Source of the DNA: Azolla caroliniana
Lineage: Eukaryota; Plantae; Polypodiophyta
Reading direction: 5' to 3'
Length of the DNA: 64,000 nt
Assembly: GCA_043228905.1 (NCBI GenBank)
Contig: JBHGNT010000010.1
Coordinates: 8,990,001 to 9,054,000, forward strand
The position numbers and the translations under genes are program-made. Positions 34,621 through 62,283 of this stretch are shown here, in pieces. The notes under the pieces were generated by a model. That model saw nothing but the letters and a program-made list of their open reading frames with translations. It did not search any database and was not told the DNA's origin. Within the stretch, counting starts at the first letter, position 1. Every line of letters starts with the position of its first letter.

Positions 34621-37600
34621 AGTGAAGCTCAAGTTCAAGGTTGTTTCTATCTTCTTAAAGACTCGTCTCCAAAAATCGTTACTAAAATTTGGATCTCAAT
34701 AATTGTGTGGCTTTTGTTACTCACAACGAAACATGTTAATGAATCAATGGAGTTATACCTCCCCTCGATATCGTTGTGCCTAGAATCCAGACCAGATTAT
34801 ACCCTTTTGATAGTGAACCGAGCAAGAGTGGTTGTAGATCACTCTAGAGCTACTAGTTTAACTAGCATGAATGGTTACCGCTTACACTTACCCTCTCGTA
34901 ATAGAATTTGATGTGTAGACAAAGAAGGTGAGAGATGAACATACGCCACTTCTTATTAAGGCCATACAAGATTAAAGGGCTTAAGGTTTGGCTCTCTTAA
35001 CTCTTAACCTTAATCATTCTTAGCTCTTAATACACTAATAGAAAGGAGAAGAGCTACAAAAGTCACAAATACTAGTTTTTATAGCTTTTTACAAAAGAGG
35101 TGGGTTCCTTTCACATTAGGTTGTCCACTGGCCATAAGGCTTCTTATTGGGTCTACGCTATCACCTTTTTCCTACTATTTTGTGGAGGTCGGTGTCCCTT
35201 GTTGGTGTCGTTTTCTCCACAAATGGTGAGGGGTAGACAACGACTTCAGCTATGAATGGGTTTGTTCTTATTTTCTTATTGTTGTTGGGGAAATCAAAGG
35301 GAAACTCAAACCAAAGAAGACGTCCTTCATTATGTGATATGTATAGGTTCTACTAATCATAGGAAAGTACGACTATTGGATCCTTTAAAGTCACAACTTG
35401 GTTTGTTTGTGGAATTACGACTTGATCAAATAATTTGTGATGTGGGAAAGGAAGCCTCATGTTTGTGAAGTACTTGGGACAAGCTTTAAGGTTCATGAGG
35501 ATCTATTGCTTCCGTTGAGGAATTGGTGGAGAAACCGCCCTATGATGGTGTTCATAAGTAGGTTAAGGGAGATTTGTTGCAAATGTATGCACCTGACGTG
35601 ACATGATGCGTTTCAGTCAAAGCAATTTTTTGGTTTTGACTACGTAATGTGATGGAAATTGAATCTTTAGTCACAAAGGAAGTGATTCTGCTTCATGTAA
35701 AGAATCGAGTGTGATTCTATGCAGTTGAATAGATTAAGGATGTGTTGTGTGTGTGTGAAAGAGGAGAGACGAGAGACACGAGATAGATAGATTGGAAAAT
35801 GAAGTAATCAAGATGGATGTATATATTAACAAGAAGTGGAGAACAATTACAACAATATGAGCATTACAAAGGAGATTAACCGACTCCTTACAATGTAGGA
35901 GGAGGGTGCTTTATATAAGGCACTCTCTCTACACTCTCTCATTACGCAATCTCTCTAGAACCTTGGGGAATGTGGAGACTCATTAGTTATGTGGAATATG
36001 GAACTCATTGGTTATGTGTCATAGAATATGATTATATGACACATAGTTAACTTGTAGAAAGTAGTGGTGACTTTTGACCTTTGAGTGCTCATAGATTCTC
36101 AAAAGGTATGTTCACACACTAGACTAGGTTGAGCTTGATTCTCAACACACACCCTCAAGCTCAACTTTGGTCGGCTTTTGACTTTCGGCCTTCCTATGTT
36201 GTCCATCTTATCTTATGTCCGCTTCAGCCAGTATCTGATTCTCTCTTCAAGATTGGCAAGTCAAGGATCGTCAATCCAAGGTCTGACATGAATCGCCGAA
36301 GCTTGTCGGCTCCTAGGGCTTTGGTGAAGATGTTAGTTGTCTGGAGATTCGTACTTATGTGTTGAAGGTCAACATCTCCAGCCTGAACGTGCTCTCGGAT
36401 GAAGTGATAGTACACTTCGATATGCTTCGTGCGCATGGAACATCGGGTTTGAGCCAGATGAATATTGCTCATGTTGTCGCAGTAAAGGGGAATCAAATCC
36501 TTGATGGGAACGCCAAGATCCTTCAATATTCTCTTTATCAAAACAACTTCACATGCAGACACAATCGTGTCCCTGTATTCGGCCTCTATGCTCCAAAGTG
36601 CGATAGTTAGCCACTTCTTGCTACTCCAGGAGATGGCTCCACTTCCGAGAGAGAAGACAAATCCTGAGATCCATCGTCGGTCGGCTCTGCAGCTTGCCTA
36701 GTCGGCATTGGTGTACCCTTCGAGTCAAATTGGTGTGGTAGACTTGTAGAGAATTTTGTAGTCCATCGTTCCACTCACGTATCGTAACACTCGCTTAACA
36801 CAATCTAAGTGAATATTGCGTGGAATTTGCATGAATTGGATATGGAAGCCGACCGGATAGTTGAGGTCGGGTCGAGTGACCATGAGATAGATGAGGCTTC
36901 CAATCAATTCTCGATACAGAGTCAACACACACTCTTCTGTCCTGGAGTCAACAACTAGCTTTAGGTTTCGATCAAGATGGGTTGCCACAGACTTAACCTC
37001 AGTCATCCCGAACTGTTGAGCGGCAAGCTCAATTGGAGCCGGATTGGCTGGACAAGCTTGAGCCGGTGAGTGAGACGGATCGGTGAGCAAAAGAGCCGGT
37101 GAGTTGGGGAGCCGGTAGCCGGATCCATCAGTAACCGGAAGCCTAGTTGCATCTAGACTACTAGGGAGTTATTACTCTCATAGTTAGTGTTAGACGCTCG
37201 AGTGAGCATTGAAGTACACCGTACTTTTGTTAGTCCGTATGGACTTGTATAAAAGTGTTCGCTGAACACATATGATGTATAGAGCGTTGATATAATTTTT
37301 TGAATAGAGATTCTTGTTCTCTCTCTCTGACTCTCCCGCGTACTGTTAAGCTCTCCATTAAACCTGTTCTCTGTTTTTTGTTTCTTATTGCTTCCGCACG
37401 CTATTTGTTTTTACATGGTATCAGAGCGCGAGGGTTGAGAACCTTTGCAACCGATATTCACTTTCGCAAGAAGAAAACCTAACCTTTGTAAAGAACAGAA
37501 AAATAACCATGGATAGAGGAATGGTTAGCTCGCTTCCGGTGGAGAAGCTCGACAGATCCAACTACGCATCTTGGTCATACAAGATGCACTAGTAACTGCT

Positions 37601-40600
37601 TGGGCATGGTTACTGGAGTTATGTCGACGGAGCTAATGACTCAGCACCTGATGCGCCACACAAGGACTTCCTGGTGTGGGAACAATTGGCAAGCAGGGTG
37701 ATGTACTACTTTGCGTCCAGTGTCGGAGACCAGCTGTTGAGCCACGTCCGAGATGCCAAGATGCCGAAAGAGGCTTGGGGAAACCTGAAGAAGGTGTTCG
37801 CCGCAAGCACAGCAACCCAGAAGCTGCAACTCCGACAGGAGTTGAGTAATGTCCGACAGAAGGACATGTCGGTGGCTGATTACACGACCCGAATCAAAGA
37901 GATTTGTGACTCATTTGCCTCTATCAACGTCACTATAGAGGAAGACGAGATGGTACAGGTCTGTCTTGGGGGCCTGGTGTCTAAGTTCCGAGCTTTCCGG
38001 ACAGCAGTACGTACGAGGGAGAATACGCCGTCATTTTTCAACTTACAATCGATGCTCCTTGTAGAGGAGAACCACGTCGGTGCATCAACAAGTGCACCCA
38101 CCGACAACCGGATGTTGTACACGGAGGCGGATCGGCCCTATGGGCGTGGTGGACGAGGCAGGTCGGCACGCAATGGAGGCGGCCGGCAAGGGCAAGACCG
38201 ACGGCACAGAGATCGTGCCGACAACAGTTCTGGGACTTCCACAAGCAGGGGGAGTCAAGGTGGCGCCGGAGGTCGGCAAGACAAATCCGCCACGGAATGC
38301 TAGTACTGTGGCAAAAAGGGCCACAGAGAAAGCGAGTGCTGGAAGAAGCGCGCCGATTTGGACAGATCTGGATCCGGAAAAACCGGTCGAGAGAACCGGC
38401 AAAGCTCGCACTACACACAAGGATCAAGAGGATCCGGAACCGAGAAGACCGGTAAGGGGCCAACCTTGGTGATGAAGCACGAGGCAAACTTGATGAAGAA
38501 GACCACTTCCAAATCAGAGGAAGTGTGGTACGTTGATTCCGGTGCATCAAATCACATGACGAGCCACAAAGAGTGGTTCTCCTTCTTGGAGAAACCGGAA
38601 CAACTGGGAGTTGTCGAAACCGAAGACGACACTCCTCACCCAATCGTCGGCCGGGAGGAGGAGGGCCAGATTATCGCGCAAGGGCGTAGAGATGGAAGGA
38701 TGTTCATCCTCGACACCAATGACGTCGGCACCGCCTTGTTCGCCAAAGGACAGAAGGTTGAATCGGATATCGACCTGTGGCACAAGCAGATCAGCCACAT
38801 CAATTATCGGCGACTTCAAGACTTGCAAACGAAACAAGTTGTTTTCGGTTGCCGAAGTTTAGTGGCCGGAAGGCCCAAGTATGTCAAACCTGCCAACTCG
38901 GGAACCAACACGGGCTTCCATTCCCCACCGAACAAAATCGTAGTCATAACAAGCTCAACCTTATTCATTCAGATGTATGGGGACCGGCACAAAACGCGAG
39001 TCTTGGCGGGAGTCGATACTTCATCTCCTTCATCGACGACTATAGCCGGCACACATGGATCTACCTCATTGAGCGGAAGAGCGAAGTCTTCGACTGTTTC
39101 CAAAACCTCCAGAGCATGGTGGAATAGGAATCGGAGAGGAAGATCAAGTGCTTGCGGTCAGATGGCGGAAAAGAATATTTTTCCGGCCAATTCAACAGTT
39201 ATCTGTAGCAAACAGGAATTCGGAGAGAGTTCAGCTGCAGATACACACCGGAGCAAAATGGTGTGGCCGAAAGGAAGAATCGGTCGCTTGTCGACGCGGC
39301 AAGGGCAATGTTGGAAGAGAAGAGCATGCCCCATTTCTACTGGGCGGAGGTGGTCCGGACAACCATCTACATCCAAAACCGGATCGGTGACAAGGTGTCC
39401 GCGCATGAGCTGTATTTCGGGCGCAACCCGAATTTGAGACACCTTCGGATTTTCGGTAGCATAGCATATGTGCATGTGCCAGATGAGAAGCGGAGGAAGC
39501 TGGATGCAAAATCGGAGAAGTGCATCCTCGTCATCTACTCATATGAGCAAAAGGGGTATAAGTGTTATAACCCTTGGACAATGTAGGTCCGAGTTAGCCG
39601 CGATGTTGAGTTTGATGAGACGGCATCATGGTATGCCTTACCAGCTCCGACTTCTGACCCCGACCCAATACCAGAGGATGAGGCTAGTGAGCCTGAATCG
39701 GTCCAGCTAGAAGATGATGACTCCGGGACTCAAGAAGAGAGTCCGGAATCGTTTCAGTTGAGTGGGCCGAACGAGAGACTGGGTCAATCCGACCAGTCAG
39801 AAGAAGAACTAGCGAGTAGTGAAGACTCTGTCGTGCTCTCCCCGCGCAAGGAACCGAGGAGACGGTTCACGCGCAAAGAGAAGGGGGAGAAGAAGATGTC
39901 GGATTATGAAACCGGTAATGATGAGTCGGATCAGAGTGGATCCGACTCCGGAAAGGAAAATGACGGTTCTTCAGCACCGAAGACTGAACCGGCCAAGAAG
40001 GGCCTCAAACCGGGTAACAGTGGGTTACGCCGATCAACCCGCCAGAAGGAACCTGTTAAGCGGTACGGGTACAATGAGTACGTAGCACATCACTATGCGT
40101 ACATGACCAAGGTGGCGGAAGTGCGTGAGCCGGAGAGCTACGCAGAAGCGGCAAAGGATGCACATTGGCATGCCGCTATGGAAGAAGAGATGCGGGCACT
40201 TGATGCCAACGATACTTGGGACCTGGTTGACCCTCCCCGTCACAGTAAACCGATCGGATGCAAGTGGGTGTACAAGGTAAAGTACAATGCCGACAGTTCA
40301 GTTAACCGGTACAAGGCCCGGTTAGTAACGAAGGGATACGCACAGACCCACAAAATCGAATATGACAAGATCTTTGCTCTTGTAGCGAAGATGACGACGG
40401 TTCGTGTGGTACTGGCGGTTGCTGCGGCAAGGGGGTGACATCTTCACCAGATGGATGTGAATAATGTATTTTTTCAAGGAGATATTGAAGAAGAGGTCTT
40501 TATGATACAACCCCCTGGTTTCCAGACGGAGATGAACAAGTCGGCGATATGCCGGCTAAAGAAGTCACTTTATGGCCTGAAGCAAGCCCCCCGAGCTTGG

Positions 40601-43022
40601 AATGCGAAGATCACGCACCTGTTGCGTAAGATGGGGTTTGCAGACTCCAAGTCCGACTCTTCGTTGTTCATCTGGCAAGGTTTAGACGGTCCCATTCGCA
40701 TCTTGTTGTACGTTGATGATCTGGTCATCACCGGACCCGAACTCGATGAAATTAGCCGAGTCAAGTCCCAATTGTCGGATGCGTTTGAGATGAAGGACTT
40801 GGGGGACCTTCACTATTTCCTTGGGATCGAGGTGATCCGAACCCCCGACGACATATTGCTCTCACAAAGGCACTATGTGTTGAATATGTTGTACAAGTTC
40901 GGCATGACGAAATGCCGACCTATCTCTACTCCCCTGGACCGGAACCAGAAGCTCCATCCCGACTCCGAACTAGCCTGCGATGAGAAACGGTTCTGACAAA
41001 TTGTCGGAAGCCTTATATATTTGACAATCACCCGACCCGACATCAACTATCTGGTCGGTGTGATTAGCCAATTCATGCGGAAGCCGACCGTAGAGCATCT
41101 TCAGTGCGCGCACTGAATACTGCGGTATGTGAGTGGCACGAAGGACCGGGGCTTGTTATATCGGCGCGGTATACCCGAAGTGTTGGTCGGTTACACAGAT
41201 GCCGACTGGGCCGACGATGCCTCAGATCGCCGATCAACCTCCAGTTACATGTTTTCCCTAGGTAGCGCGACTGTTGCGTGGAGCAGCAAAAAGCAGCCAA
41301 CAGTTGCTCTGTCGAGCATTGAGGCTGAGTATCGGGGCGCTACCATTGCCACCTGTGAAGCCATTTGGCTTCGACGACTGCTGCAAGACCTAAGGATCGA
41401 GGTACCAACCTCGATTCTGATCTACTACAACAATATAAGCAGCATGCAGCTCGCCAAGAACCCCATATTCCATGCTCGCACAAAGCACATAGAAGTGCAC
41501 TATCACTTCGTGCGTGAGCGTGTCCTGAGTGGTGAGGTCGAACTTCGGTATGTTCACACGGATCGGCAAGTTGCCGACATCTTCACCAAACCACTCGGAT
41601 CGGACAAGTTGCAGCACTTCACCAAAATGCTTGGTGTTCAGCATCTCGACATGCCACATTTGAGGGGGAGAACAGGCAAAGACGCCGGAACGGGTAAAGG
41701 CAAAGAGACTACTTATTGCACCGGTGAGGAAAAAAACCGACGAAGGGAGAGTCATGAAGAAGAAAGGAGCCGAGTCGACACATCCGAACAAGTCAGAACA
41801 AGCGGCAGCGGCGGTAGAGTCAAGAAGGACAGAGCCGACCGGAAGAAGAAGGCCAAGACCCGGACATGGTCCGATGTGGTGAAGGGCTTGGAACCAGAAG
41901 ACGAATCGGGAGCAACTGATTCAGATGAGAGCTGGAACGAATCGGAGATAGTCGATTCGGTTCAACAGACAGATTCGGAAGAACCGGATCAATTCAAGGC
42001 CAAGAGGACGAGAAGGTAGCGAAAGTCGACGCCAACACGAAGGAATCGGCGAACCGGCACGCACCGAAGTCATAGCAGTGAGGGAGTTGAATTGGGCCAG
42101 TTGAGCAGACAAGTCGACCGAGGAGGTCGAGGTGCGCAGAACAAGAGGGGTCGCGGCAAACAGAACCGGACCGGACGAGGAGCGTGAGCAAGGCGGAGTG
42201 ACGCCAGAAGGACCCGGTGTCGTGAAGAAAACCGTCCATAGGCGGAATCGGCGCACCAAGGCGTGGGAACCGGTTCTTCACGCGCGCACGCTCCGAGTTG
42301 TACATAGAAGCGAATTAGGAGGATAATCGGCGGGAACGGGCCCTAACACAAGTGGAGACAAAGACCGCGCGAACAGTCTTTTCGGGCACGCGCGCGAGCT
42401 AAGGGACGGCACGAGTCGGCGGCGTAACTACGCGGATGCGTGAAGAACGGAGCGGATCCCTGTTCGAAAGGGACAGGGAATAAAGCTGACATGACGGCCT
42501 GCTCGTCGGCCTATATAAGAGCGGGGAAAGAGCTGTTGCAGGCATCTCGCAGGGGAGAGAACGAAGTGCTGTCGGACCGTTTCTGGACGCTTCTCTCTCT
42601 CTCTGTGTTTCCTTCCTTCTTGAGCTCCAGAGCTTTCTGTGCAGGGTTCCGAGGAGGCTTGCGCTGTTTCGAGGAACGCCCGAGTGCTTCCGGCAGCACC
42701 TCCGACCGGCTACCCCTTTGTGCGTCGAAGCGAACAGGCATCGGCATCTGTTCGCCGGCCTGTTCGGTTGAAACCAACCTGTGCCCCATCGAGGGTTGTA
42801 GTCGCGTTAGCCATAACTTTCTTAATATATATATTTAGTCATTCGCATCTGTCTGTGTCGGTGTTCGTTCGCGTTCTCCGTGCTGAAGGGCCGTGTCCCT
42901 GTGTATCCCCGGTCCTGCGTAGCCGGTTCTCTCTCTTCCTCCTCCCTCACTTGCTCTTTGGTTCGAGACCCCCGCGGTCCCGCCTCGTTTCCACACGCAC
43001 TTGCGTAATAACTCGACATCTT

Positions 43023-43040
43023 TGGTGAACCCGACGTGAA
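43023..43040 (+). promoter_or_regulatory. Primer binding site complementary to the 3' end of tRNA-Trp
   Basis: TGGTGAACCCGACGTGAA is the reverse complement of TTCACGTCGGGTTCACCA, the plant cytosolic tRNA-Trp 3' end as I recall it; 4 nt downstream of the LTR. Confidence 0.85.
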
Positions 43041-43062
43041 GGAGGCGGCAGAAGAGCAGAAG

Positions 43063-45189
43063 ATGAGGGGGTCGGATCTTGCAGAGGCCATGGCTTCGGC
43101 CGTGGATCGGATTGTAAACGCGCGCGAGGGCACCGGTGCCCTCGACAGAGCTATTGAGGCGGTCGTCGGCACGATCGGCCGGTTCGATGGGAGGGATGCC
43201 ACGAAGTATCTGGCGTCCTACGGTGCAGAAATGCTGATGCGGGACATTCCGGAAGAAAGGCGTCTTGCCGGATTTCCCCGAGTGGCAATGCCGAGCATCC
43301 ATGCGGAGGTGCTCGAGGTGCGGGCGGAGAGCCGTACCTGGGAAGAGTTCGAAGCTCGGCTCCTAGAGAAATACGGGCTGGACGACGCGCTCCGGCTTTC
43401 GAAGCGAAGGTTCATGGAATGGGTGGAATCCCCGGGGAAGGGAAGAAACGCGTCGGCACTCCTCCGGGAGTTCGAGGAAAACTTTGCGCGCCTTTCGGCG
43501 CTCGACCGAACCATCCTGGACACGAGCCGGGTCTTACTGTTTGTCAAGTCGGTCGACGAGCGGGATCGGGAGCAAGTGGGCCTCTTGCTGGAAACCGAAG
43601 ACGGGCTCACTACCGACTGGGCGGCTGTCAGGAAGGTCTGTGGCCGTTTCGACAAACGGCGAGAATGGGCGGATAACGGGGCAACCGGGTCGGGCTCGGT
43701 CGCAGCAAGGAAGCTCGAACCAGCGCCACAGGTGCGAAAGGAAGAGACCCGAGAGTGGTTGGAAACGGGTTCGGCTTCGACCGGCGTAGTCAGAGGCTCA
43801 ACCGGAGGAGCGGCGCTGGAGGAATTGACGAAGGCGATAAAGGACCTCCAAATCGCGCAGGCCCGAAGGGAAGGAGGCGAACCGGCTCGTGACCGACGGC
43901 CGGCGGCAGGAAACAGGTGCATGTGGTGCGATGAAGTCGGCCACATTCGGAAGGACTGCGGCGACTTCGCGGAGGCGCTGAGGAACAGGGTGGTGTACCT
44001 GTGGGAAGGACGGGTGCATGCCATCGACACCCGAAGGGCCCTGAGCCGAAACGACGGGCGAGGTGGTATGAAAAGGTTGATGGAAGAGGCGGCGGCCCGA
44101 CACGCGGAAACCGTCCACTACTCGGCGTCGGCCGGCATTCGAGTCGGGGGCGGCGAGGCCCGAAAGGAAAGCAAAGCCGGATTCTGGCCGACGATGCTAG
44201 AAGGCCTTGCCGGTGCAGGGCTAAAAGGGGAGGAATCGGACCGTGCGGAGAAACGGGTACGGGAGATGACCGGGTGGAGCGACCCGGTCGAGGAAAAGAC
44301 GGGCTTCGTGGAAGCCGCTTGCCGGAACTACGAGGCTCTGGTAGAAGAGAAGCGGGTGGGGAAACCCGGGACGACCGGGCCCTCACAACGATACGAGACC
44401 CGGTCCGGGCCACGACGGGACGAAGCCGGCGGGGCCGGTACGCAAGATAAACCCCAGAAGGGCGGGTACCGTCTGGGGACGGAGATAGAAAGAACCACGG
44501 ACTTACGAAAGGTCCTGGAGGAACGGATCCTCGACAGCAAGGTGGAGCTGTCGTTACGAGAGGTGCTGGGAATCGCCAAGAAGGAGTTCCATGACTCCAT
44601 CGTGGACTTAGTGAAACGGAAGAGGCTGTCAACGGAGACAGAACCGGAAAGACCGGTGGAAGTGCGGACGACGCACCTAGACGACATGGCGCTGGGAGAC
44701 GAGTGGGCGGAAAGCCACTATTCGAGACCGCACTGGGCCCGAGCGACCACGGAAACCCCGGTGAAGATCGGCGATGTCCAGGAACCGGTGATAGCTTTGG
44801 TGGACCACGGATCGGAGATCAATTTGATGTCCATGGACTTCTATAAGAAGGGCAAATGGCCGATCAACACCAAGCACGGGTGGAAAATAAGGGCAGCAAC
44901 ACGCGCCACCGAGGAACTGCACGGGGCCTGTCCGAATGTGCGAGTCAAGATCGGCGACGTCGAGATTGACCAGCACTTCTTCGTGCAGGAGACGTCTTCG
45001 CATCCGGTCATACTGGGAGAGCCGTACATCACGGCGGCGCGAATGGAGACCAAGGTGCTGGACAATGGTTCGGCCTACGCAAGGGTCAAAAGCCAAGACG
45101 GGCGCCATTCGGTCCAGTTTCTGACGGTACGGCCGAACCACGAACGTAACCGCGACTCCCTCGGTTCCGAAAACCGAGAGGATTTTTAG
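43063..45189 (+). CDS. Gag-protease polyprotein of the gypsy element
   Basis: First ATG at 43063; zinc knuckle CMWCDEVGHIRKDC; aspartic protease ALVDHGSEINLM...VILGEPY; ends at GAT TTT TAG. Confidence 0.93.
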   Translation: MRGSDLAEAMASAVDRIVNAREGTGALDRAIEAVVGTIGRFDGRDATKYLASYGAEMLMRDIPEERRLAGFPRVAMPSIHAEVLEVRAESRTWEEFEARLLEKYGLDDALRLSKRRFMEWVESPGKGRNASALLREFEENFARLSALDRTILDTSRVLLFVKSVDERDREQVGLLLETEDGLTTDWAAVRKVCGRFDKRREWADNGATGSGSVAARKLEPAPQVRKEETREWLETGSASTGVVRGSTGGAALEELTKAIKDLQIAQARREGGEPARDRRPAAGNRCMWCDEVGHIRKDCGDFAEALRNRVVYLWEGRVHAIDTRRALSRNDGRGGMKRLMEEAAARHAETVHYSASAGIRVGGGEARKESKAGFWPTMLEGLAGAGLKGEESDRAEKRVREMTGWSDPVEEKTGFVEAACRNYEALVEEKRVGKPGTTGPSQRYETRSGPRRDEAGGAGTQDKPQKGGYRLGTEIERTTDLRKVLEERILDSKVELSLREVLGIAKKEFHDSIVDLVKRKRLSTETEPERPVEVRTTHLDDMALGDEWAESHYSRPHWARATTETPVKIGDVQEPVIALVDHGSEINLMSMDFYKKGKWPINTKHGWKIRAATRATEELHGACPNVRVKIGDVEIDQHFFVQETSSHPVILGEPYITAARMETKVLDNGSAYARVKSQDGRHSVQFLTVRPNHERNRDSLGSENREDF

Positions 45190-48100
45190 AGAGGACTGCC
45201 AAGGCGTGGGGCCGCGACAGTCCGGATGCTCCGGGAAGACCCCACATCTGTACGATAAAACCGTGTACAATAGGTAGGAAATTTTGCTTCTCCGGCAGCG
45301 GAGCATGTGCGATGGTCGGCATCGCCGGCCGAGAGAAAACAAAGACGGAGGGGAGACTTCGAGCGTGCGGAGTTCTCGGCCCTGACGAAGAAATCAACGG
45401 AGCCGTGGAGGCAGTCTCCTTCGACGACACCTTGGGAATGCTGGGGAAGGTAGTCGAAGAAGACCTTGACGAAGACCGGACGATACCGGTATGTTCAGAA
45501 GAAATGTACGAAGTCATCGCGGACTTCGGTCGAGGGCTCGAGTCGGAACGGACGGCCCGAGTTGGCACCAAGTACAAGACTGTGGACCGGAAGGTGAGGC
45601 CGGTTGCGGCGCCCTTACCGGAGGGCAGCGAATCCCGGATCAAAGGGGTTGCATCGGACCCCAGCTTACGAGATCCGGCCTGCATAGGACACACCTTCAC
45701 CAACGAGACGCTCCGCGAGCTGAAGATAGGTGGGGGCGGGTTCCTACTGCCGGTGGAGGAAGACCGGTTTCGGAGGATGCTCGGAAGGCACGGGAAAGCC
45801 TTCGCATTCTCACCGGAGGAAATCGGGTGCGTAGACCCGACGATCGTAGAGCCGATGGTGATATTCACGGTACCGCATGTACCGTGGAATCTCAAGCCAA
45901 TTCCGGTTCCAAGAGCTCACATCCCGAAGTTGATGGAGTTGTTGAAGCAGAAAGTTGTTATGGGCATTCTCGAGCCGTCGAGCGCCCCGTACTCGAACCG
46001 GTGGTTTACGGTACCAAAGAAAAACGGATCATTGCGCTTCATTCAGGACCTGCAACCGGTCAATAGGGTGACCATTCGGAACGCAGGGATCGGACCGACC
46101 ATAGACGAGTTCGCGGAGGCCTTCGCCGGAAGGTCGATTTACTCGGTCGGTGATCTATATTCAGGGTACGACCAGTTCCAGCTAGCCGTGGAGAGCAGAG
46201 ACATTACGACGATGCGAACTCCCCTCGGCCTAGTGCGGATGTGTACGCTGCCGCAAGGAGGGACCAACTCGGTGGCCCACATGGTGAATGCAATGAACAA
46301 GGTGCTGAGGGACTGCATCCCGGACATCACCATGCCGTTTCTAGACGACATCCCGATCAAGGGTTGCCCGGTAGAAGAGAAGGACGAGACGATCGGGCCG
46401 GACGGATGCCGGCGATTCGTGGTAACGCACATCGACGACTGCGAGAAGGTGCTGCAAAGGCTAGAGGATGCGAGGCTCACTTTCTCGGGGGAGAAGTCAG
46501 CCTTCGGGCAGTCGGAAATCATGGTGGTCGGACATTTATGTGGACCGTATGGCCGGAAACCGTCTCCGGCAAAGATAGAAGCCATCTCCGCGATGAAGCC
46601 TGATTGCAGCTCGGTCACGGAAGTACGAAGATTCTTGGGAGCATGCGCCTTCTACCACATATGGATCCCGCATTACGCGCACGTCGCGGAGCCGCTGTAC
46701 GGACTATTGAAGAAAGGGCGAAGATTCGAATGGCTAGACAAGCACACGGAGTCGGTCCGGAGGCTGAAGGAGGCTCTTTCGGCAGCACCGGCGCTCCGAA
46801 AGGCCGTCTACAGGAAGGGCACCCCAGTGTACATAACGGTTGACACGAGTCCGACCGGAATCGGGTGGGTCGTCAACCAAGAAGACGAGGACGGCAATCG
46901 GTTTCCGATCCGATTCGGCGCGAAGGTCCTCAGCGAACGGCAGCGAGGATACGCCCAGGTTAAACGCGAACTCTGGGGTATCGTTTCGGCGGTGAAGGCC
47001 GACAAGGACTATCTGATCGGGACAGAGGTAATCATAGAGACGGATTGCATGCCGATTCTCGGCATGGTTTCCGGATGCGCGACGCCGGACCTGGCAATGC
47101 TCAGGTGGATAGCGTACATCAAGTCCCTGGACCCGGAAATACGACACATTTCCGGTAAAGACAACGCCATGGCCGACATGCTTTCAAGGGCGAGATTCGA
47201 TGACGAGGGCGGCATGGTTTCGGAGGACGAAGAGGTCGGCGTGGACTTCTTCGAGGCTGCGTATGTAACAACCGACGGAACAAGCACTCCGGCGCTTAAC
47301 GACTTCGACGCGAGCAAGTACGACGGGGAGTGGCTGCAGATCGGTGGGTTTTTGAGGACAATGACGCCCGATGCGTCATGGACGAAGGACGAGGCCAACC
47401 GGATCCGGAAGAAAGCGTACCGGTTCTTTCTCCGGGATGGCTATCTATGGAAGCACCCGAAGAAGAGGGACGGCGCTCCGCTCCGGGTGGTGGCGACGAA
47501 GGAAGAACAGGAGGAGCTGCTGACGGCCTACCACGACAGCCCTTGGGCTGGACACCGTGGGACTTGGGCTACGTTTGAGAAACTGAAGGGGAAGCATTGG
47601 TGGCCGGGGCAGTACCAGGACGTGCATCGGTTCGTGACAACTTGCGAGAGCTGTCAGATGCACTCCATAGTCCGACATCGGGACGAGCTTCACCCCACGT
47701 ACCCTCCGACCATCCACTTCAAATGGATGGTAGATCTGGTGACGATGCCAATGGGGGTAGGACAGATGCGGTACCTGGTCCTAGCGCGGGAGGATCTGAC
47801 GAACCAGGTGGAAGGCCGGGCCCTTCCGAACAAAACGACCGCGGCCGTATGTCGGTTCCTAATCGAGGACGTGATATGCCGGTACGGGTGCGTCAGGAAG
47901 ATCGTGGCTGACCGAGGGGAGTTGGACGCCGAAGAAGCCGCGGAGCTGTTCGACCGGCTGGGGGTCAAGCTCTCGCTCACCACTGCGTACAATCCGGAGG
48001 CGAATGGAAAGGTGGAGCGCGGACACGGACCGATCGTCAAGGCGTTGATTCGGGCATGCGGAGGCCGAGTCGGTAACTGGCCGCGGCTGCTACCTTATGC

Positions 48101-48764
48101 TTTGTGGGCAGACCGGACCACGCACAGTTCGGTAACCGGGTACATGCCGACGGAGCTCATGTTCGGCCAGAAGCCGATCATGCCGATAGAACGGACGATC
48201 TCCTCGTGGGCAACGGTCGACTGGAGGGACGAGATGAGCCGGGAGGAGTTGTTGGCCGCACGTATACGACAGCTCGAGCGGAGACCGGAGGACGTGGCAC
48301 TGGCTACGGAGAAGCTCCGGGTGGCGAGGACAAAGAACAAAGCCCGGTTCGACCGAACGCACCGGCTACGACCGAAGAAAATCGACGAAGGTGACTGGGT
48401 GCTCGTCTACGACAGCAGCCTCGACAACCAGCACCGAGCTACACGGAAGTTCGCACAAAGGTGGTTCGGGCCTTACGTGGTGCGGAGCGCCAATGACAAC
48501 GGAACATATCACCTGGCGGAACTAGACGGCACGAGAATGGCGATACCGGTTGCAGGGAAGCGGATCAAAGCGTTCAAGAAGCGACACGACGACGAGCCAG
48601 ACCCAGCTCTCCTAGTCAGCAGTGACGAAAGATCCGAAAACGAGGAAGAACCGACGGGCGAAGAAATGAAGACGGGCCGGTTTTCTCCGTCCCAACTCTC
48701 TTGGTGCATACCGGAGGATGCACGGTTAGGTGGGGGCGGATGTCGTGAAGAAAACCGTCCATAG
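45180..48764 (+). CDS. RT-RNase H-integrase ORF, open from the slippery site at 45180 and probably reached by -1 frameshift
   Basis: Checked codon by codon, the -1 frame has no stop from 45180 to the ATG at 45312. RT DLYSGYDQ, LPQG, FLDD; RNase H VDTS; integrase H-H-C-C zinc finger, D-D-E core and GPY motif. The stop codon lies 24 nt inside the 3' LTR. Confidence 0.92.
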   Translation, partial: GFLERTAKAWGRDSPDAPGRPHICTIKPCTIGRKFCFSGSGACAMVGIAGREKTKTEGRLRACGVLGPDEEINGAVEAVSFDDTLGMLGKVVEEDLDEDRTIPVCSEEMYEVIADFGRGLESERTARVGTKYKTVDRKVRPVAAPLPEGSESRIKGVASDPSLRDPACIGHTFTNETLRELKIGGGGFLLPVEEDRFRRMLGRHGKAFAFSPEEIGCVDPTIVEPMVIFTVPHVPWNLKPIPVPRAHIPKLMELLKQKVVMGILEPSSAPYSNRWFTVPKKNGSLRFIQDLQPVNRVTIRNAGIGPTIDEFAEAFAGRSIYSVGDLYSGYDQFQLAVESRDITTMRTPLGLVRMCTLPQGGTNSVAHMVNAMNKVLRDCIPDITMPFLDDIPIKGCPVEEKDETIGPDGCRRFVVTHIDDCEKVLQRLEDARLTFSGEKSAFGQSEIMVVGHLCGPYGRKPSPAKIEAISAMKPDCSSVTEVRRFLGACAFYHIWIPHYAHVAEPLYGLLKKGRRFEWLDKHTESVRRLKEALSAAPALRKAVYRKGTPVYITVDTSPTGIGWVVNQEDEDGNRFPIRFGAKVLSERQRGYAQVKRELWGIVSAVKADKDYLIGTEVIIETDCMPILGMVSGCATPDLAMLRWIAYIKSLDPEIRHISGKDNAMADMLSRARFDDEGGMVSEDEEVGVDFFEAAYVTTDGTSTPALNDFDASKYDGEWLQIGGFLRTMTPDASWTKDEANRIRKKAYRFFLRDGYLWKHPKKRDGAPLRVVATKEEQEELLTAYHDSPWAGHRGTWATFEKLKGKHWWPGQYQDVHRFVTTCESCQMHSIVRHRDELHPTYPPTIHFKWMVDLVTMPMGVGQMRYLVLAREDLTNQVEGRALPNKTTAAVCRFLIEDVICRYGCVRKIVADRGELDAEEAAELFDRLGVKLSLTTAYNPEANGKVERGHGPIVKALIRACGGRVGNWPRLLPYALWADRTTHSSVTGYMPTELMFGQKPIMPIERTISSWATVDWRDEMSREELLAARIRQLERRPEDVALATEKLRVARTKNKARFDRTHRLRPKKIDEGDWVLVYDSSLDNQHRATRKFAQRWFGPYVVRSANDNGTYHLAELDGTRMAIPVAGKRIKAFKKRHDDEPDPALLVSSDERSENEEEPTGEEMKTGRFSPSQLSWCIPEDARLGGGGCREENRP

Positions 48765-51700
48765 GCGGAATCGGCGCACCAAGGCGTGGGAACCGGTTCT
48801 TCACGCGCGCACGCTCCGAGTTGTACATAGAAGCGAATTAGGAGGATAATCGGCGGGAACGGGCCCTAACACAAGTGGAGACAAAGACCGCGCGAACAGT
48901 CTTTTCGGGCACGCGCGCGAGCTAAGGGACGGCACGAGTCGGCGGCGTAACTACGCGGATGCGTGAAGAACGGAGCGGATCCCTGTTCGAAAGGGACAGG
49001 GAATAAAGCTGACATGACGGCCTGCTCGTCGGCCTATATAAGAGCGGGGAAAGAGCTGTTGCAGGCATCTCGCAGGGGAGAGAACGAAGTGCTGTCGGAC
49101 CGTTTCTGGACGCTTCTCTCTCTCTCTGTGTTTCCTTCCTTCTTGAGCTCCAGAGCTTTCTGTGCAGGGTTCCGAGGAGGCTTGCGCTGTTTCGAGGAAC
49201 GCCCGAGTGCTTCCGGCAGCACCTCCGACCGGCTACCCCTTTGTGCGTCGAAGCGAACAGGCATCGGCATCTGTTCGCCGGCCTGTTCGGTTGAAACCAA
49301 CCTGTGCCCCATCGAGGGTTGTAGTCGCGTTAGCCATAACTTTCTTAATATATATATTTAGTCATTCGCATCTGTCTGTGTCGGTGTTCGTTCGCGTTCT
49401 CCGTGCTGAAGGGCCGTGTCCCTGTGTATCCCCGGTCCTGCGTAGCCGGTTCTCTCTCTTCCTCCTCCCTCACTTGCTCTTTGGTTCGAGACCCCCGCGG
49501 TCCCGCCTCGTTTCCACACGCACTTGCGTAATAACTCGACACCGGGCAGAAGGACCGGTTGCCACAGACGTTGACATTATGACTGGACCTCAAGTTGAGC
49601 TTGAGGGGGAGTGTTGAGCGGCAAGCTCAATCGGAGCCGGATGGGCTGGATAAGCCTGAGCCGGTGAGCGAGACGGATCGGTGAGCCGGTGAGCACCCGG
49701 TGAGCAAAAGAGCCGGTGAGCTGGGGAGTTGGTTAGCTGGATCCATCAGTAACCGGAAGCCTAGTAGCAGCTAGACTACTAGGGAGTTATTACTCTCGTA
49801 GTTAGTGTCAAACGCTCGAGTGAGCATTGAAGTACACCGTACTTCTGTTAGTCCGTATGGACTTGTATAAAAGTGTTCGCTGAACACATACAATGTACAG
49901 AGCGTTGATATAATTTTTTGAATAGAGATTCTTGTTCTCTCTCTCTGACTCTCCCGCGTACTATTAAGCTCTCCATTAAAAACTTGTTCTCTGTTTTTTG
50001 TTTCTTATTGCTTCCGCACGCTATTTGTTTTTACACGAACTTATATAATAAGTTGAGGATGTAGTGCCATTGGGAGATCATAATGCCGGCTAGAGTCCAA
50101 ATTACCTGCCAAGGAAGTAATGAAGCTCTTTCATGTCCGCCATCTCAAATTTTCTGGAGAGGAGGGCCTTGATCTTGTTGATGTCGACTAGATGCTCACC
50201 TCCAATGACCAGATCATCAACGTATAGGATGATGAAAATCCGACTTTTGGAATTGCTTCTTACATAGAGGGAGTTGTTAGATTTTGACATTTTGAAGTTG
50301 ATTCGATGAAGATAATGTGTTATCTTGGAATGCCAAGCACGTGGTGCTTGCTTAAGGTTGTAGAGTGGCTTCTTCAGTTGGCAGACTGCTTTCGGATGGT
50401 TGTTAGATTTGAAGCCAGTTGGTTGGACCATGTAAACCTCCTCTTCTAATTCGCCTTGGAGGAAGGCCTTCTTTACGTCCATCTAGTGGAGGTGCCACCC
50501 TTTTGGTGTTGCGAGTGCAATCATGGTTCGAATAGTCGTCATCTTTGCCATCAGGGCAAAGGTCTCTTCATAGTCGACTCCATGTGTCTATGTGTATCCT
50601 TTCGCTATGAGTCGGGCTTTATAGTGATTGACAGAGCCGTCGACGTTATACCTCACCTTGAATATCCATCTACAACCAATTGCCTTCTTGTGAGGTGAGT
50701 GGGGAACTTGCATGCATTGCTCCACAATTTGGCTAACCGAGACCAAATTCTTCGTTATGGTCGATACATGCAAGATGTTTTTTATACAAGTTTGTTTGTC
50801 GTCTTTTCCAAATGGGACATTGCCAATGTGTCAAATCGGATGAATAGTGTTGTCTCCAATCTTGACATAGCCGGGTCGATCCGGCTCTTGTAGGTCCCAA
50901 AACCATTCTTGATGGGACGTCATATGGTTCGAGGCACTGGAGTCGACAAACCATACATTTTCCGGGCTGGAGGCACTAGTCGAAGTAAAAGCTGACATAG
51001 AATTTGCTCTATGTCTCATCACGAACATTCCTCCATGGTCATCATAGTCGGAGTTGGTGGCGTAATTGGTGAGTTGTCGGCTTGTAGAGGCCGACTCACG
51101 CTTCTTCTTTCGGCACTCTTCTTCATGATGGCTGATTTTACCAGAATATCTACATTCAATTGAGTTGTTTTGTCGGCTTGGACTGGCATGGAAGCTCCCC
51201 CTTCTTCCGAATGTTCCTCGGTTGTTTCCATTTTCTTGCCGAAATTGGGAGTTATTTTCATAGGTTGACCTTGTTTGCCTCATCCTTGGCCGAATCACCC
51301 TCTTCTTGCTCGACTGCGTCCTCTTCCTCCGTTCGAGTGTGTGTAGAGCATTTGACCTTCCGAGGCGTTGCTCTTGGTTCAAACATGATTTTCTTCAACC
51401 AATAACATTGATTGAAGATCGAAGAAAGAGGGAGGATTCTCCCTTGTTAGGACGACAATTCTCATTGTGTCGAACCGTGGTGCGAGGCCGCCTAGGCATA
51501 TTTGTACCATCTCATCATCCTGCACGTTGACACTTATTGAGCCAAGTGAGTTACAAAGCTCCTTGATCTTCACGGTGTAGCTTGTGATGGACATATCTCG
51601 TTGTTAGATATTGTTCAACTCTTGACGGAGTGGAAGCTTTCATGCCATCGTATTGGCGGCGAATATCTTCTTGAGATTCTCCCAAGCTTCTTTCGGTGTC

Positions 51701-56454: not shown

Positions 56455-57889
56455 TGTCACACTTTAGACTCAAACCTCTGACTTTTAACACACACAGTAC
56501 ATTGTGTTGTGTTAACAACCATATGGAAACTCTTGTGAATTGTCCAGATTCGATTGTGAACTTGTATATATTGTACAGTCTACTATATAGTACATTCGAG
56601 AATATTCTAGTCATTAGTATATTCTAGAATTATTCTGTGGTATATTCTAAATGGGTATATTCTTGAGTATATTCTAGAGATATTCATTCTCGGAAATTGT
56701 ATAAATATGTGTAACATCCTTGGTCCCTTTCAAGGGATTCAACACCAGTCATTTACACATCAATCTAGTATTCTCGTTTCACCTCATCTTTGTCTCCTTG
56801 ATCTTTATTTCTGTCTTCATGCCCTCATGTCGCTCACAACAACTAGAGTTCCTAGCCTCGTCACATCTAGCACCAAGTTCATCCGTCGCTTGTAGCCCCA
56901 TCATTTGTGCTCCGTCCTAGTCCGCGCTTGGTGTGTCTGTGACAGTTTGAATCCCTTCCAACTGGGAGCACCACTCGTCTTCGTCATCGCCTTTGCTTCT
57001 AGAGTTACCATCATCACCGTCCTTGCTTCTGGAGTTACCGTCATCAACATCCTTGTCTTCGATGTCATCATTTTCAGCACCTCTTCGTACAACCATCGTC
57101 GTCATCAACACTACTTGTCATCATTTTGCATCACAGTTTTGGTGAGGAGTGCTTTCGATCACTCACCTTCCCAGTTCCGGTGGGGGTCACAACCACTCAC
57201 TTTCCTGGTGGGGATCGGATCATTGCTCGGTTGCACTACATTTTCGTTATAGTTCAAGTCTCGCGCCACTTTCTATTGATGAGGACCGATTTCGATCGCT
57301 CACCTTCTAGTTTCGGTGGGGGTCACAACCGCTCATTTTCTTGGTGGGGATCGCGTGGATTTCTCTCTAGCGCTACCATTTGTGTTGTGTCTTGAGTCAA
57401 CCTCGACTATTTACCCTCTCATAATGAGAGGATTTGACGCTATCAAATCTTTCGCCTCTCGGCCACAACCGAGACAACACGGATCAATGCAGCAGAAAAT
57501 GGAAAAAAAAAACACAAAGAGACGAATACACAGGGTATAACGTGGAAAACCCTAAACGGGAAAAACCACGGGAGTGCACAACTCCAACTATCACTATACA
57601 CTGGAATATACAATGGCGAGCTGCAAGGCGACGACCTTGAGCTCGCTGTCCTCGCCACAGGCGGCGGTATTACACAGAGGCGTCGACCTCTTCGTTTCTC
57701 TCTCTAGCGGCTGCTCTCACTTCGCTCCCTCTGAGTGAAAACAGAAAATAAGCAACAACATAAAACAGTTTGCCCTAAGTCATATTTATACATATATGTC
57801 TTTCGGGCTATTTACAAATATAGCCTCAAGGGCTCTTGGCAAACATATTCACAAATATGTCCCCGCATCCGGATCTCCCTCCGGGTACA

Positions 57890-58135
57890 TTCGTCATCCG
57901 GCTCCGTAACCGGGGTCTTCATCATCCGGCTCCGTAGCCGGGGTCTTCATCATCCGGCACCGTAGCCAGGGTCTTCGTCATCCGGCTCCGTAGCCGGGTA
58001 TTCATCATCCGGCTCCGTAGCCGGGGTCTTCATCATCCGGCTCCGTAGCCAGGGTCTTCGTCATCCGGCTCCGTAGCCAGGGTCTTCATCATCCGGCTCC
58101 ATAGCCAGGGTCTTCGTCATCCGGCTCCGTAACCG
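57890..58135. repeat. About nine tandem copies of a 26-27 bp unit (TCATCCGGCTCCGTAGCCRGGGTCTTC) in U3 of the copia D LTR; repeated at about 62782-63027
   Basis: Seen directly in both LTRs. Confidence 0.9.
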
Positions 58136-58206
58136 CAACCGGGCTTGCCGTCATTCATCTCCGGACATCCCATCCGGAGGGACCGAAATCCCAACAAACT
58201 CCCCCT

Positions 58207-61200: not shown

Positions 61201-62283
61201 CACGTCTCCTATGCCGGCAATCCGGCATGTGCCTTCATTTCCCATCCGGACACAGCCGTGCTCACCGGTTGTGTAGGATGAGAAGTATTTCTTCTCCGGG
61301 GTCAGGTGGAACGACGCTCCGGAATCGACCACCCAGGTCATCTCTACACCGGCAAGGTTCAGCTCCCTCTCTTCGGTAATGAGCATGATTTCTTCTTCAC
61401 TTGCCGCGAGTGCCGTCGTTCCTTTCCGGTCCTGCCCTCGCCGATCCGGACCTCTCCGGTCCGTGGCTCCCCGGTATGCACCGTTTCTCTCCGGTGACTT
61501 CTTCGAATCGGTGTCGTCGGCTCCGTTGTCTTTTCGGTAATGCCGACAATTCTTCCGGAAGTGCCCCGGCTTCCCACAGTGGAAGCATGTGGGTCTTCCT
61601 CTTGACTGCGACCGGGTCCCCGACTTCTCCCGTCTTTGCGGACTCCGGTTCCATTGTCTTCCCCGTTCCGATTCGGTAAGCAGCGCCTTCGAGTCGGAGA
61701 CCGGTTCTTTATCTCTCCGACGCGCTTCTTCGTTCAAAATACTTGTCTTTACCGTTTGTAGGGACAAGTTATCTTCGGTGCAGGAGGTGCTGAGAGTCAC
61801 CACCAAGTTCTCCCAGCTGTCCGGCAATGTACACATCAGGATGATGGCTTGCATTGCATCCTCCAACGGGAACTTGATCGCCGCAAGCTGGTTCACGAAT
61901 CCCATGAACGTGCTTACGTGTTCCACCATACTCTCGCCGTCCCGGTACTTGAGGTTCACTATCTTTCTCATCAGGGAGGTCCGGTTCAACGCATTCTTCC
62001 TCTCGTAGAGGCCCGACAGTTTCCTCCACATCTCATATGCGTTGGTGTCGTTCGCCACGTGTTGTAGAACGCTCACGTCGACGTATTGCCGAATGGTTGC
62101 AACGGCTTTCCGGTTCAGAAGCCTCCACTCCGTCTCAAGTACCCCCTTGGGTATTTCCGACCTGTCGATCGGTTCATACAGGTCCCGAACAATGAGCAGA
62201 TCCTCCATCTTTATCTTCCAGTCGGCGTAGTTCTGCGCATTCAGCACCATCATCCCCGGCTGCCCGCTGCTGCCGCCTTCCAT
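58207..62283 (-). pseudogene. Gag-pol of copia D, complete except for one in-frame TAG at 59557-59559
   Basis: ORFs 59557-62370 and 58207-59514 are in the same frame; junction reads KGF*QKKGVDFDEIFAPVVKM. Zinc knuckle CFHCGKPGHFRKNC, protease VVDSGAS, integrase, RT LYVDD and RNase H FTDSD are all present. Confidence 0.9.

Follow-up and report, generated by a model that had tools for sequence, protein, structure and literature searches.

A conserved slippery heptamer and predicted pseudoknot between protease and reverse transcriptase in a Phygy-like Ty3/gypsy lineage, with a probable -2 variant in a sister family

The Ty3/gypsy retrotransposon described here very probably gains access to its reverse transcriptase (RT), RNase H (RH) and integrase (IN) by -1 slippage of ribosomes at a G_GAU_UUU heptamer, stimulated by a downstream pseudoknot, which would yield mostly Gag-protease (Gag-PR) and a small amount of a Gag-PR-RT-RH-IN fusion. 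As judged by sequence comparison, the cassette is not specific to this copy and is lineage-wide and ancestral in the Phygy-like lineage. With slightly better than even confidence, we further propose that a bryophyte and fern lineage meters RT and integrase by one ancestral G_GAU_UUU pseudoknot cassette, and that in one branch, whose members continue to amplify in this genome, it has been retuned to a natural, protein-free and pseudoknot-driven -2 shift at AG_GUU_UUU with one spacer base fewer. If conserved as it appears, the -1 pseudoknot signal would clearly exemplify -1 recoding among nuclear retroelements of plants, and a single genome would contain thousands of copies of it.

An intact element with two overlapping reading frames

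The element, a full-length non-chromovirus of the Ty3/gypsy type, occupies positions 42218..49541 (7,324 bp) of the window, i.e. the whole 64-kb stretch of DNA that was analysed, and lies, as do all features given below, on the forward strand. It is intact, as the initial annotation had claimed: the 5' LTR (42218..43018; 801 nt, TG...CA) and the 3' LTR (48741..49541) are identical over 801 nt, which marks the copy as young, and the element is flanked by a 4-bp target duplication, CCGG (42214-42217 and 49542-49545). The primer-binding site (43023..43040) is the complement of the 3' end of tRNA-Trp(CCA) as encoded in this genome; the five loci examined among its 64 genome matches were all tRNA-Trp, and no tRNA gene is present within the 64-kb window. 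A purine-rich tract upstream of the 3' LTR (48728..48740) is likely the polypurine tract. ORF1 (43063..45189; 43012-45189 and 725 aa from stop to stop, first ATG at 43063) comprises Gag with a CCHC knuckle (43918-43959), a DUF4100 region and an aspartic protease with a DHG motif (within 44797-44817), and terminates in Asp-Phe-stop. ORF2 (45150..48764; 1204 aa) is located in the -1 frame and consists of a leader of about 130 residues, RT with the FLDD motif at 46338-46349, RNase H and integrase; it is devoid of a protease, and its earliest ATG does not occur before 45312. The two frames overlap by 37 nt ahead of the ORF1 stop and fill the internal region without any extra ORF, and the domain order PR-RT-RH-IN between the LTRs is that of Ty3/gypsy elements.

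By Pfam alone, the protease of ORF1 remained below threshold, and a fold search was needed because a sequence search of the PDB returned no match. By its predicted fold (AlphaFold pLDDT 84.8), the tail of ORF1 belongs to the proteases of retroviral type; the best Foldseek matches were RVP domains of Ddi1 (E 1e-6), followed by retroviral proteases. The earlier reading of ORF1 as Gag plus protease, with an RT-RH-IN frame in -1 that stays open from the heptamer onward, was thus upheld. The clade assignment as Phygy-like is based on the 4-bp NCGN duplication, the tRNA-Trp primer-binding site and the lack of a chromodomain, none being detected in ORF1 or ORF2 by a Pfam scan at E 0.1. Phygy, as described in REXdb (Neumann et al. 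2019, PMC6317226), similarly has an NCGN 4-bp duplication (CCGG here), a tRNA-Trp primer-binding site, neither chromodomain nor aRH nor an extra ORF, and a compact internal region; its reference size, a descriptive range from a single species, is 7,656-9,968 bp as compared to 7,324 bp here. The ORF organisation of Phygy is given there as ND, and the accessible part of that article mentions no recoding signal for it. Homologs of ORF1 include proteins of Physcomitrium patens, and the named relatives of the element are from a moss, liverworts and a fern. No relative was found among the viral contigs searched.

The slip site and the predicted pseudoknot

In this copy, the heptamer G_GAU_UUU (GGATTTT, 45180..45186) is positioned in the ORF1 frame and is immediately followed by the ORF1 stop codon TAG (45187-45189), which provides the first bases of a 6-nt spacer (45187..45192). 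The 5' arm (45193..45203, with GGACTG at 45193-98) and the 3' arm (45213..45223, with CAGTCC at 45218-23) of stem 1 enclose the 5' arm of stem 2 (GTGGGG, 45206..45211), the partner of which (CCCCAC, 45240..45245) follows 16 nt past stem 1. The positions of the heptamer, the stop, GGACTG/CAGTCC and GTGGGG/CCCCAC, and the distance of 6 nt between heptamer and stem, had been correctly given by the initial annotation. The heptamer is of the X_XXY_YYZ type, with G_GA accepted as a variant of XXX, and resides in the zero frame within the ORF overlap. Stem 1 comprises six perfect pairs here, and C 45199 opposes A 45217 at a position which is a U-A pair in most relatives; its z value of -1.4 is weaker than the family mean of -3.1. 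The pseudoknot of this copy scores only at the borderline against 40 shuffles (p ~0.049), and GGATTTT by itself is common, with 11 matches on both strands of the 64-kb window. It is therefore the conservation and covariation among relatives, not this copy alone, by which the cassette exceeds chance. Minimum-energy folding, which cannot display a pseudoknot, yields stem 1 together with competing hairpins, and no Rfam family fits the cassette apart from a single chance match (E 4). A hairpin located 5' of the heptamer was rejected as a core part; it is present here and reaches z < -2 in only 8 of 34 representatives (mean -0.9).

Of the 30 genomic copies closest to the element, one of them being the window itself, 28 have an intact heptamer; these copies are 98-100% alike and thus too close for testing selection. 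Genome-wide, the cassette pattern gave 3,830 matches as opposed to 3 for a reversed control. Among 81 DNA rows collected without any heptamer filter, ORF1 ends in Phe in 63, and 62 of these carry GGATTTY, while the 30 nt upstream of the heptamer are only 31% alike among relatives. As background, within the protease region G precedes Asp in 84 of 309 cases, GAT is found in 194 of 309 and TTT in 73 of 172. The variant heptamers GGGTTTT, GGATTTC and GGTTTTC remain slippery, and the stop codon may be TAG, TAA or TGA. Similarly, the ends of 91 ORF1 homologs, mostly metagenome-called, are DF (62), GF (3), NF (3), xF plus five residues (19), VF plus one residue (2) or other (2); in a few families the ORF1 stop is located five codons further on, within stem 1. 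The 80 DNA loci stem mostly from one accession number range and may represent a single sampling campaign.

With respect to the ORF1 stop, RT is in the -1 frame in 58 of 72 anchored rows and in the +1/-2 frame in four; ten are undetermined and none is in the same frame. In 13 of 32 representatives the -1 frame opens no more than six codons from the heptamer end, which pins the slip site. Among the 34 representatives, which had been chosen with a heptamer filter that dropped 7 of 81 rows without a heptamer near the stop, the RT frame is free of stops for the next 110 codons in 30, and either other frame is closed in all 34. A protease is missing from 83 of 84 ORF2 homologs outside Riccia. In one relative, P0111, known from a single contig, protease and RT share one frame.

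In 32 of the 34 representatives, the pseudoknot scores better than the corresponding 40 dinucleotide shuffles (p <= 0.05). In stem 1, 84% of cells are paired, compared to 27-44% in slid controls, and two-sided changes occur in 9 of 11 pairs; the covariation of 0.384 versus 0.242 was equalled in 0 of 500 shuffles. In stem 2, pairing with the own partner scores higher than pairing with swapped ones (15.7 versus 13.2; 0 of 10,000 permutations). These counts are uncorrected for the relatedness of the loci. Both checks suggested at the outset, conservation of the heptamer and covariation of the two stems, hence turned out in favour of the cassette. The spacer measures 6 nt in 32 of 32 rows of the -1 type in alignment A2, within the range of 5-9 nt accepted for -1 signals (PMC7618472). 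The conserved 3' stimulator is accordingly modelled as a compact H-type pseudoknot, of which the lineage supplies dozens of natural variants.

In the mechanism that we propose, ribosomes would likely pause at the predicted H-type pseudoknot 6 nt downstream of the heptamer, and we infer that a minority would slip back by one base, with tRNA-Asp shifting from GAU to GGA and tRNA-Phe from UUU to UUU in tandem. The junction peptide would then read ...REDF followed by LERTAK..., and the fusion might be packaged by virtue of its Gag part, RT and IN being freed by the protease. As the -1 site of PEMV2, G_GAU_UUU has been tested in wheat-germ extract (PMC4737148).

A sister family with RT in the -2 frame

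The same genome harbours a sister family (98 genome matches; 7,907-8,001 bp; LTRs >99.5% identical) with the site AG_GUU_UUU, a 5-nt spacer and RT in the -2 frame. Target duplications, CCGC and ACGC, were recognised in two of four elements, the other two not being clean. Two subfamilies, both with AG_GUU_UUU, continue as UUU_G, which accounts for most of the 98 matches, or as UUU_U; the -1 frame is closed, in the UUU_G subfamily by an immediate stop. The lineage pseudoknot is predicted to be retained at a distance of 5 nt. This family likely slips back by two bases, and the ancestral -1 cassette was likely converted to -2 by the change of the site to AG_GUU_UUU and the shortening of the spacer to 5 nt. 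The loss of 1 nt from the spacer goes in the direction favouring -2: at an engineered U6A site, a shorter spacer has been found to favour -2, as explained by mRNA tension (PMC3458567). The arterivirus PRRSV similarly uses AG_GUU_UUU for nsp2TF, with the -1 frame closed at once (PMC7618472, PMC5009743). However, PRRSV is described as having no RNA structure at the site and as requiring nsp1-beta, which binds a C-rich motif, whereas the sister family has a predicted pseudoknot at 5 nt; an unstructured 3' CCCANCUCC motif of the arterivirus type was not found in the sister family, where the pseudoknot occupies its place.

Since +1 and -2 are the same reading frame, RT of the sister family could instead be reached by +1 slippage on the U-run, with a junction one residue shorter. 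Natural access to that frame is mostly by +1, which pseudoknots can stimulate, as in antizyme (PMC5009743), and +1 re-pairing is possible in the UUU_U subfamily. In the commoner UUU_G subfamily, however, tRNA-Phe would re-pair poorly after a +1 step, whereas a -2 step leaves the A-site UUU fully re-paired in both. In addition, both subfamilies retain the -2 site of PRRSV, the UUU_G one with the same immediate stop in -1, the spacer has changed in the -2-favouring direction, and a relative with G_GUU_UUC and a 6-nt spacer (L105) has RT in the -1 frame. We therefore consider +1 slippage unlikely and favour -2. If true, the -2 shift would, in contrast to that of PRRSV, provide the only access to an essential enzyme, here in a nuclear-encoded element, and the branch would put the mRNA-tension model to a natural test. 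The sister pair renders the spacer-tension rule directly testable on two natural cassettes of about 90 nt.

Alternative routes to ORF2

An intron of the Ogre type, by which some transcripts would be spliced over the junction so that the stop is removed and the protease fused to RT, appears very unlikely. Gene models from Riccia do span the junction (in 24 of 36, protease and RT are joined, at a similar point in three), and 17 of 34 representatives, the window among them, have a donor-like GT no more than 150 nt before the end of ORF1. Gene predictors, however, often invent introns across frameshifts, and apart from one within stem 1, most rows have no GT position near the stop in common. The would-be intron encodes an alignable peptide, unlike a non-coding spacer; its RT frame remains open in 30 of 34 representatives, and each of the other two frames is closed in all 34. 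RNA-seq, recommended initially as the check for an intron, revealed neither a splice joint nor a heptamer indel at the junction in three poly(A) runs at a depth of only 8-20, with reads from one study that map to both strands and stem from related families of another organism, 85-95% alike; indels were listed from 3 reads and 5% upwards. The sole GT..AG skip belongs to one low-depth contig of a run that is probably DNA and lies downstream of the cassette. Splicing would also leave the heptamer, the fixed spacer and the pseudoknot unexplained.

Separate production of ORF2, whether by reinitiation after the stop, from an internal start or from a subgenomic RNA, with the structure serving as an initiation, packaging or dimerisation signal, is highly improbable. 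In-frame ATGs do precede RT in ORF2 (45312 here), and gene callers place the starts of ORF2 proteins downstream of the junction; yet the first in-frame ATG is located anywhere from 1 to 109 codons past the site, and no start codon is common, even between two families of the -2 type. Moreover, the constraint sits on silent positions of X_XXY_YYZ in the ORF1 frame, and the starts of the RNA reads, at low depth, did not pile up.

Slippage of RNA polymerase or RT, by which an extra U in the U-run would fuse the two frames in some of the RNAs, is scarcely credible. The site has five consecutive U, a one-base deletion at the heptamer is present in one genomic copy (L029) among the closest 30, and RT slippage at shift sites has been described (PMC5737552, PMC5737442). 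The heptamer in the RNA reads, however, showed no indel at the above threshold, GGATTTC and GGTTTTC interrupt the U-run while tRNA re-pairing is retained, and a spacer of 5-6 nt suits ribosome geometry. Readthrough of the stop codon is rejected because RT is in the zero frame in none of the 72 anchored loci, nor do these show the continuous PR-RT frame which the initial annotation had named as speaking against a frameshift.

Comparison with known systems

The split between Gag-PR and RT-RH-IN, regarded initially as an unusual expression strategy, is in itself known: it prevails in the plant elements Ogre and Retand of the Tat clade, via an intron or stop codon (PMC6317226), and occurs in alpharetroviruses. 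Ogre has a spacer or intron, or a stop, at PROT/RT, and Retand a single in-frame stop or one ORF, as opposed to the overlapping -1 frame here; both carry aRH. In the corresponding table, overlapping frames at PROT/RT are not the prevailing form of any lineage (PMC6317226). The novelty here lies in the combination, in the Phygy-like lineage, of an overlapping -1 frame and a pseudoknot, and in the sister family with RT in -2. Our literature search found no description of this cassette, and it is absent from the accessible text of PMC4917564, PMC5911963, PMC5006619, PMC2864245, PMC11963269 and PMC7466625.

The closest functional analogue is the retroviral shift that places only RT and IN behind it. 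These retroviruses are of a virus family different from that of the element, MMTV and HTLV have a second shift ahead of the protease, and the alpharetrovirus heptamer differs from G_GAU_UUU. In the alpharetrovirus Rous sarcoma virus, a -1 shift between gag-pro and pol with a 3' pseudoknot likewise leaves only RT and IN behind it, and the same holds for beta- and deltaretroviruses with their shift between pro and pol (PMC4276931, PMC5009743).

The designation as a plant-RNA-virus type of signal applies to the heptamer and the adjacent stop and not to the stimulator, which is a compact H-type pseudoknot. RCNMV, a dianthovirus, uses the same heptamer, and G_GA sites are found in dianthoviruses, insect flaviviruses and mesoniviruses too. 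The umbravirus PEMV2 has G_GAU_UUU with a stop at or just past the site and a short spacer (PMC4737148). In umbra- and dianthoviruses, the stimulator is described as a long hairpin with a bulge, which follows a 5-nt spacer and makes a long-range contact with the 3' end, in contrast to the local pseudoknot at 6 nt here; a bulged hairpin of that type was not found as the conserved structure. Capture of the cassette from a plant RNA virus was rejected, as the match extends over no more than 7 nt, G_GA sites are found repeatedly among unrelated viruses and the stimulators differ.

The cassette also explains why gene models of moss, liverwort and fern break or invent introns at the junction. Among the distant matches from a 50% representative search, some ORF1 homologs still end in DF, GF or NF.

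The element and its reading frames

According to the initial annotation, a -1 frameshift cassette separates protease and reverse transcriptase (RT) in a gypsy element of the window, and all of its coordinates proved correct on the window sequence: the heptamer GGATTTT (45180-45186) is followed by a 6-nt spacer, which opens with the stop codon TAG (45187-45189), and then by a predicted H-type pseudoknot (45193-45245). The surrounding LTR retrotransposon (42218-49541, plus strand, 7,324 bp) has LTRs that are identical across 801 nt and a target duplication, CCGG, and was inserted among copia-type remnants. Such remnants lie around or beside it at 37014-42217 and 49542-50000, where two repeats of 93% identity (about 37014-37379 and 49612-49997) resemble the LTRs of an older element into which this one inserted. 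ORF1 (43063-45189, plus strand) encodes a CCHC knuckle and a C-terminal domain with the predicted structure of a retroviral-type aspartic protease (pLDDT 84.8), for which Foldseek returned Ddi1 protease domains as best matches (E 1e-6), followed by the XMRV, EIAV and HIV proteases. ORF2 (45150-48764, plus strand) occupies the -1 frame, encodes RT, RNase H and integrase without a protease, and has its first ATG 42 codons downstream of the heptamer. The protease motif is DHG in place of D[ST]G (44803-44811), which is invariant in an alignment spanning this motif, and the RT catalytic motif, usually YxDD, is FLDD (46338-46349), as in the protein homologs P0016 and P0019. The ORF2 leader of about 130 residues between shift site and RT region (45186-45570) is poorly conserved, yet always open.

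The target duplication matches NCGN, and the primer-binding site is complementary to tRNA-Trp of the same genome (5/5 loci examined, of 64 matches), both of which are given as marks of the Phygy clade by Neumann et al. 2019 (PMC6317226). We refer to the element as Phygy-like on the basis of these two marks. Homologs with species names are from Physcomitrium patens, Riccia and Adiantum. The tRNA-Trp 3' pattern also occurs in tandem clusters on two contigs of the genome, C8 (17796786-17823371, matches spaced about 1.2 kb) and C16 (4989495-5105657), which represent tRNA-Trp gene arrays or tRNA-derived repeats.

Conservation of the predicted slip site

Within the window alone the signal is weak, since GGATTTT occurs 11 times and the pseudoknot of this copy barely exceeds its shuffles (p about 0.049). 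Among the 30 closest copies fetched from the same genome (of 40 scored, the window copy being one of them), which are 98-100% alike, the heptamer is intact in 28. Searched across the genome, a pattern in which the heptamer precedes a stop-like triplet, three unconstrained bases and the beginning of the stem gave 3,830 matches versus 3 for the reversed control. The conservation among relatives that the initial annotation called for was borne out in 81 DNA rows (the best 80 of 168 loci plus the window): without a filter for the heptamer, ORF1 ends in Phe in 63 rows, 62 of which carry GGATTTY. Elsewhere in the protease, by comparison, the same residues show G before Asp in 84/309, GAT in 194/309 and TTT in 73/172 cases, and the 30 nt 5' of the site are a mere 31% alike between rows. 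The RT frame, determined with the nine rows lacking an anchor left out, is -1 in 58 of 72 rows, +1/-2 in four (two intact families and two decayed copies) and undetermined in 10; the continuous protease-RT frame that would speak against a shift was found in none of the 72.

Among the best 120 of 234 ORF1 homologs, 91 do not correspond to named eukaryotic gene models; these end in DF (62), GF (3), NF (3), xF plus five residues (19), VF plus one (2) or otherwise (2), and the 29 named models in DF (3), the plus-five form (7) or other ends (19). Protease is absent from 83 of the 84 non-Riccia proteins within the best 120 of 202 ORF2 homologs. The remaining one, P0111, is a distant relative on one contig whose protease and RT share the same frame, either because the shift was lost or through an error of one base.

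A conserved predicted pseudoknot

A heptamer close to the stop is present in 74 rows, the other 7 being set aside, and these were reduced to 34 representatives. In 32 of them, a predicted H-type pseudoknot that starts 4-9 nt 3' of the site scores above 40 dinucleotide shuffles; the other two are decayed copies. The alignment of the 32 -1-type rows is gapless from the heptamer through stem 1, and the spacer is thus fixed at 6 nt. Stem 1, modelled at 11 pairs, is paired in 84% of cells (27-44% in slid controls), and its core comprises eight pairs, as the outer three are often broken. Two-sided changes occur in nine pairs and 0/500 shuffles reached the covariation score, both figures being uncorrected for relatedness and most loci perhaps stemming from one sampling campaign. 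The loop arm of stem 2 fits its own 3' region better than that of another family (15.7 versus 13.2; 0/10,000 permutations, uncorrected for relatedness), most sharply where loops are altered, e.g. at loci L076, L095, L101, L102 and L109. Both predicted stems show the covariation that the initial annotation had proposed as a check. In the window's subfamily, stem 1 contains a C-A mismatch and is below average in strength.

The stop lies five codons further on in four of the 34 representatives. An ORF1 extending five codons beyond the heptamer and ending Pro-Leu-stop is seen at L083, L102, L106 and L108 and in P. patens and Adiantum proteins; as these codons form the 5' arm of stem 1, this protein end is likely kept through RNA constraint.

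Mechanism

Protease and RT might alternatively be joined by splicing across the junction. Speaking against a frameshift, 24 of 36 Riccia gene models contain such a fusion, in three cases at a comparable position; we take these to be probable predictor artefacts. Against an intron, the RT frame is stop-free for 110 codons past the site in 30/34 rows, with both other frames blocked in 34/34. A scan of about 12% of each of three poly(A) RNA runs gave 376, 213 and 732 element reads and zero joints, and at the site of the relative L032, covered 8-20 reads deep, neither a joint nor an indel in the U-run appeared; being of low depth, from both strands, from related families in another organism and from one study, these reads are a weak test. 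Separate initiation of ORF2 fits poorly with a first in-frame ATG whose position varies from 1 to 109 codons downstream. Readthrough of the stop is rejected, as RT is in the wrong frame.

We consider the cassette to be real and conserved and, judged from sequence comparison, very likely functional. With high probability, the ribosome would undergo tandem -1 slippage on G_GAU_UUU while held by the predicted pseudoknot. For pea enation mosaic virus 2, the same heptamer directs a -1 shift in wheat-germ extract, and a nearby stop matters there irrespective of its identity (PMC4737148); the variation between TAG, TAA and TGA observed here is as expected from this indifference. The outcome would be much Gag-PR and little Gag-PR-RT-RH-IN, the same logic as in alpharetroviral gag-pro/pol (PMC4276931).

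A sister family with RT in another frame

Two loci that pair together in the protease tree (support 100/99), L073 (cassette at 2492-2574) and L076 (2830-2912), end ORF1 one codon beyond AG_GUU_UUU and keep the predicted pseudoknot at a spacer of 5 nt. Their -1 frame closes after 5 and 0 codons, whereas the -2 frame is open for 1,099 and 1,152 codons, respectively, and their ORF2 is 62% identical to that of the window, aligning from the stem-coded peptide onward. The motif has 98 matches in the Azolla genome (loci L111-L129 among them) versus 0 in the control. Of 15 such loci examined, 13 carry RT motifs in the -2 frame, one of which has them in frame 0 as well, and two are decayed copies. Four loci, picked because their frames are open, proved to be complete elements whose LTRs are 99.5-99.9% identical, three of them with the 1,152-codon ORF2; thus, the arrangement is propagating and does not stem from a damaged copy. 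In PRRSV, AG_GUU_UUU serves as the -2 site (PMC7618472) and a -1 shift runs into a stop immediately (PMC5009743), and spacers 1-2 nt shorter than those for -1 favour -2 (PMC3458567). More likely than not, the sister family reaches RT by a -2 shift; a +1 shift would produce the identical frame and is the less likely of the two. At locus L105, where the site is G_GUU_UUC and the spacer measures 6 nt, RT is still in -1.

Full-text searches returned no listing with a description of this cassette; Gao et al. 2003, Repbase and REXdb files 1 and 3 lay outside their scope and may bear on novelty. In supplementary file 5 of Neumann et al., the Phygy organisation is entered as ND, and breaks between protease and RT are listed for Ogre and Retand only, via spacer or stop (PMC6317226). 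According to Atkins et al. 2016, pol was in +1 in those plant elements whose frames are separate.

Elsewhere in the window, a long direct repeat (57503-63082; copies 4,892 nt apart and identical over at least 300 nt) contains a 28-nt tandem array and probably represents another LTR element of very recent origin, on the minus strand.
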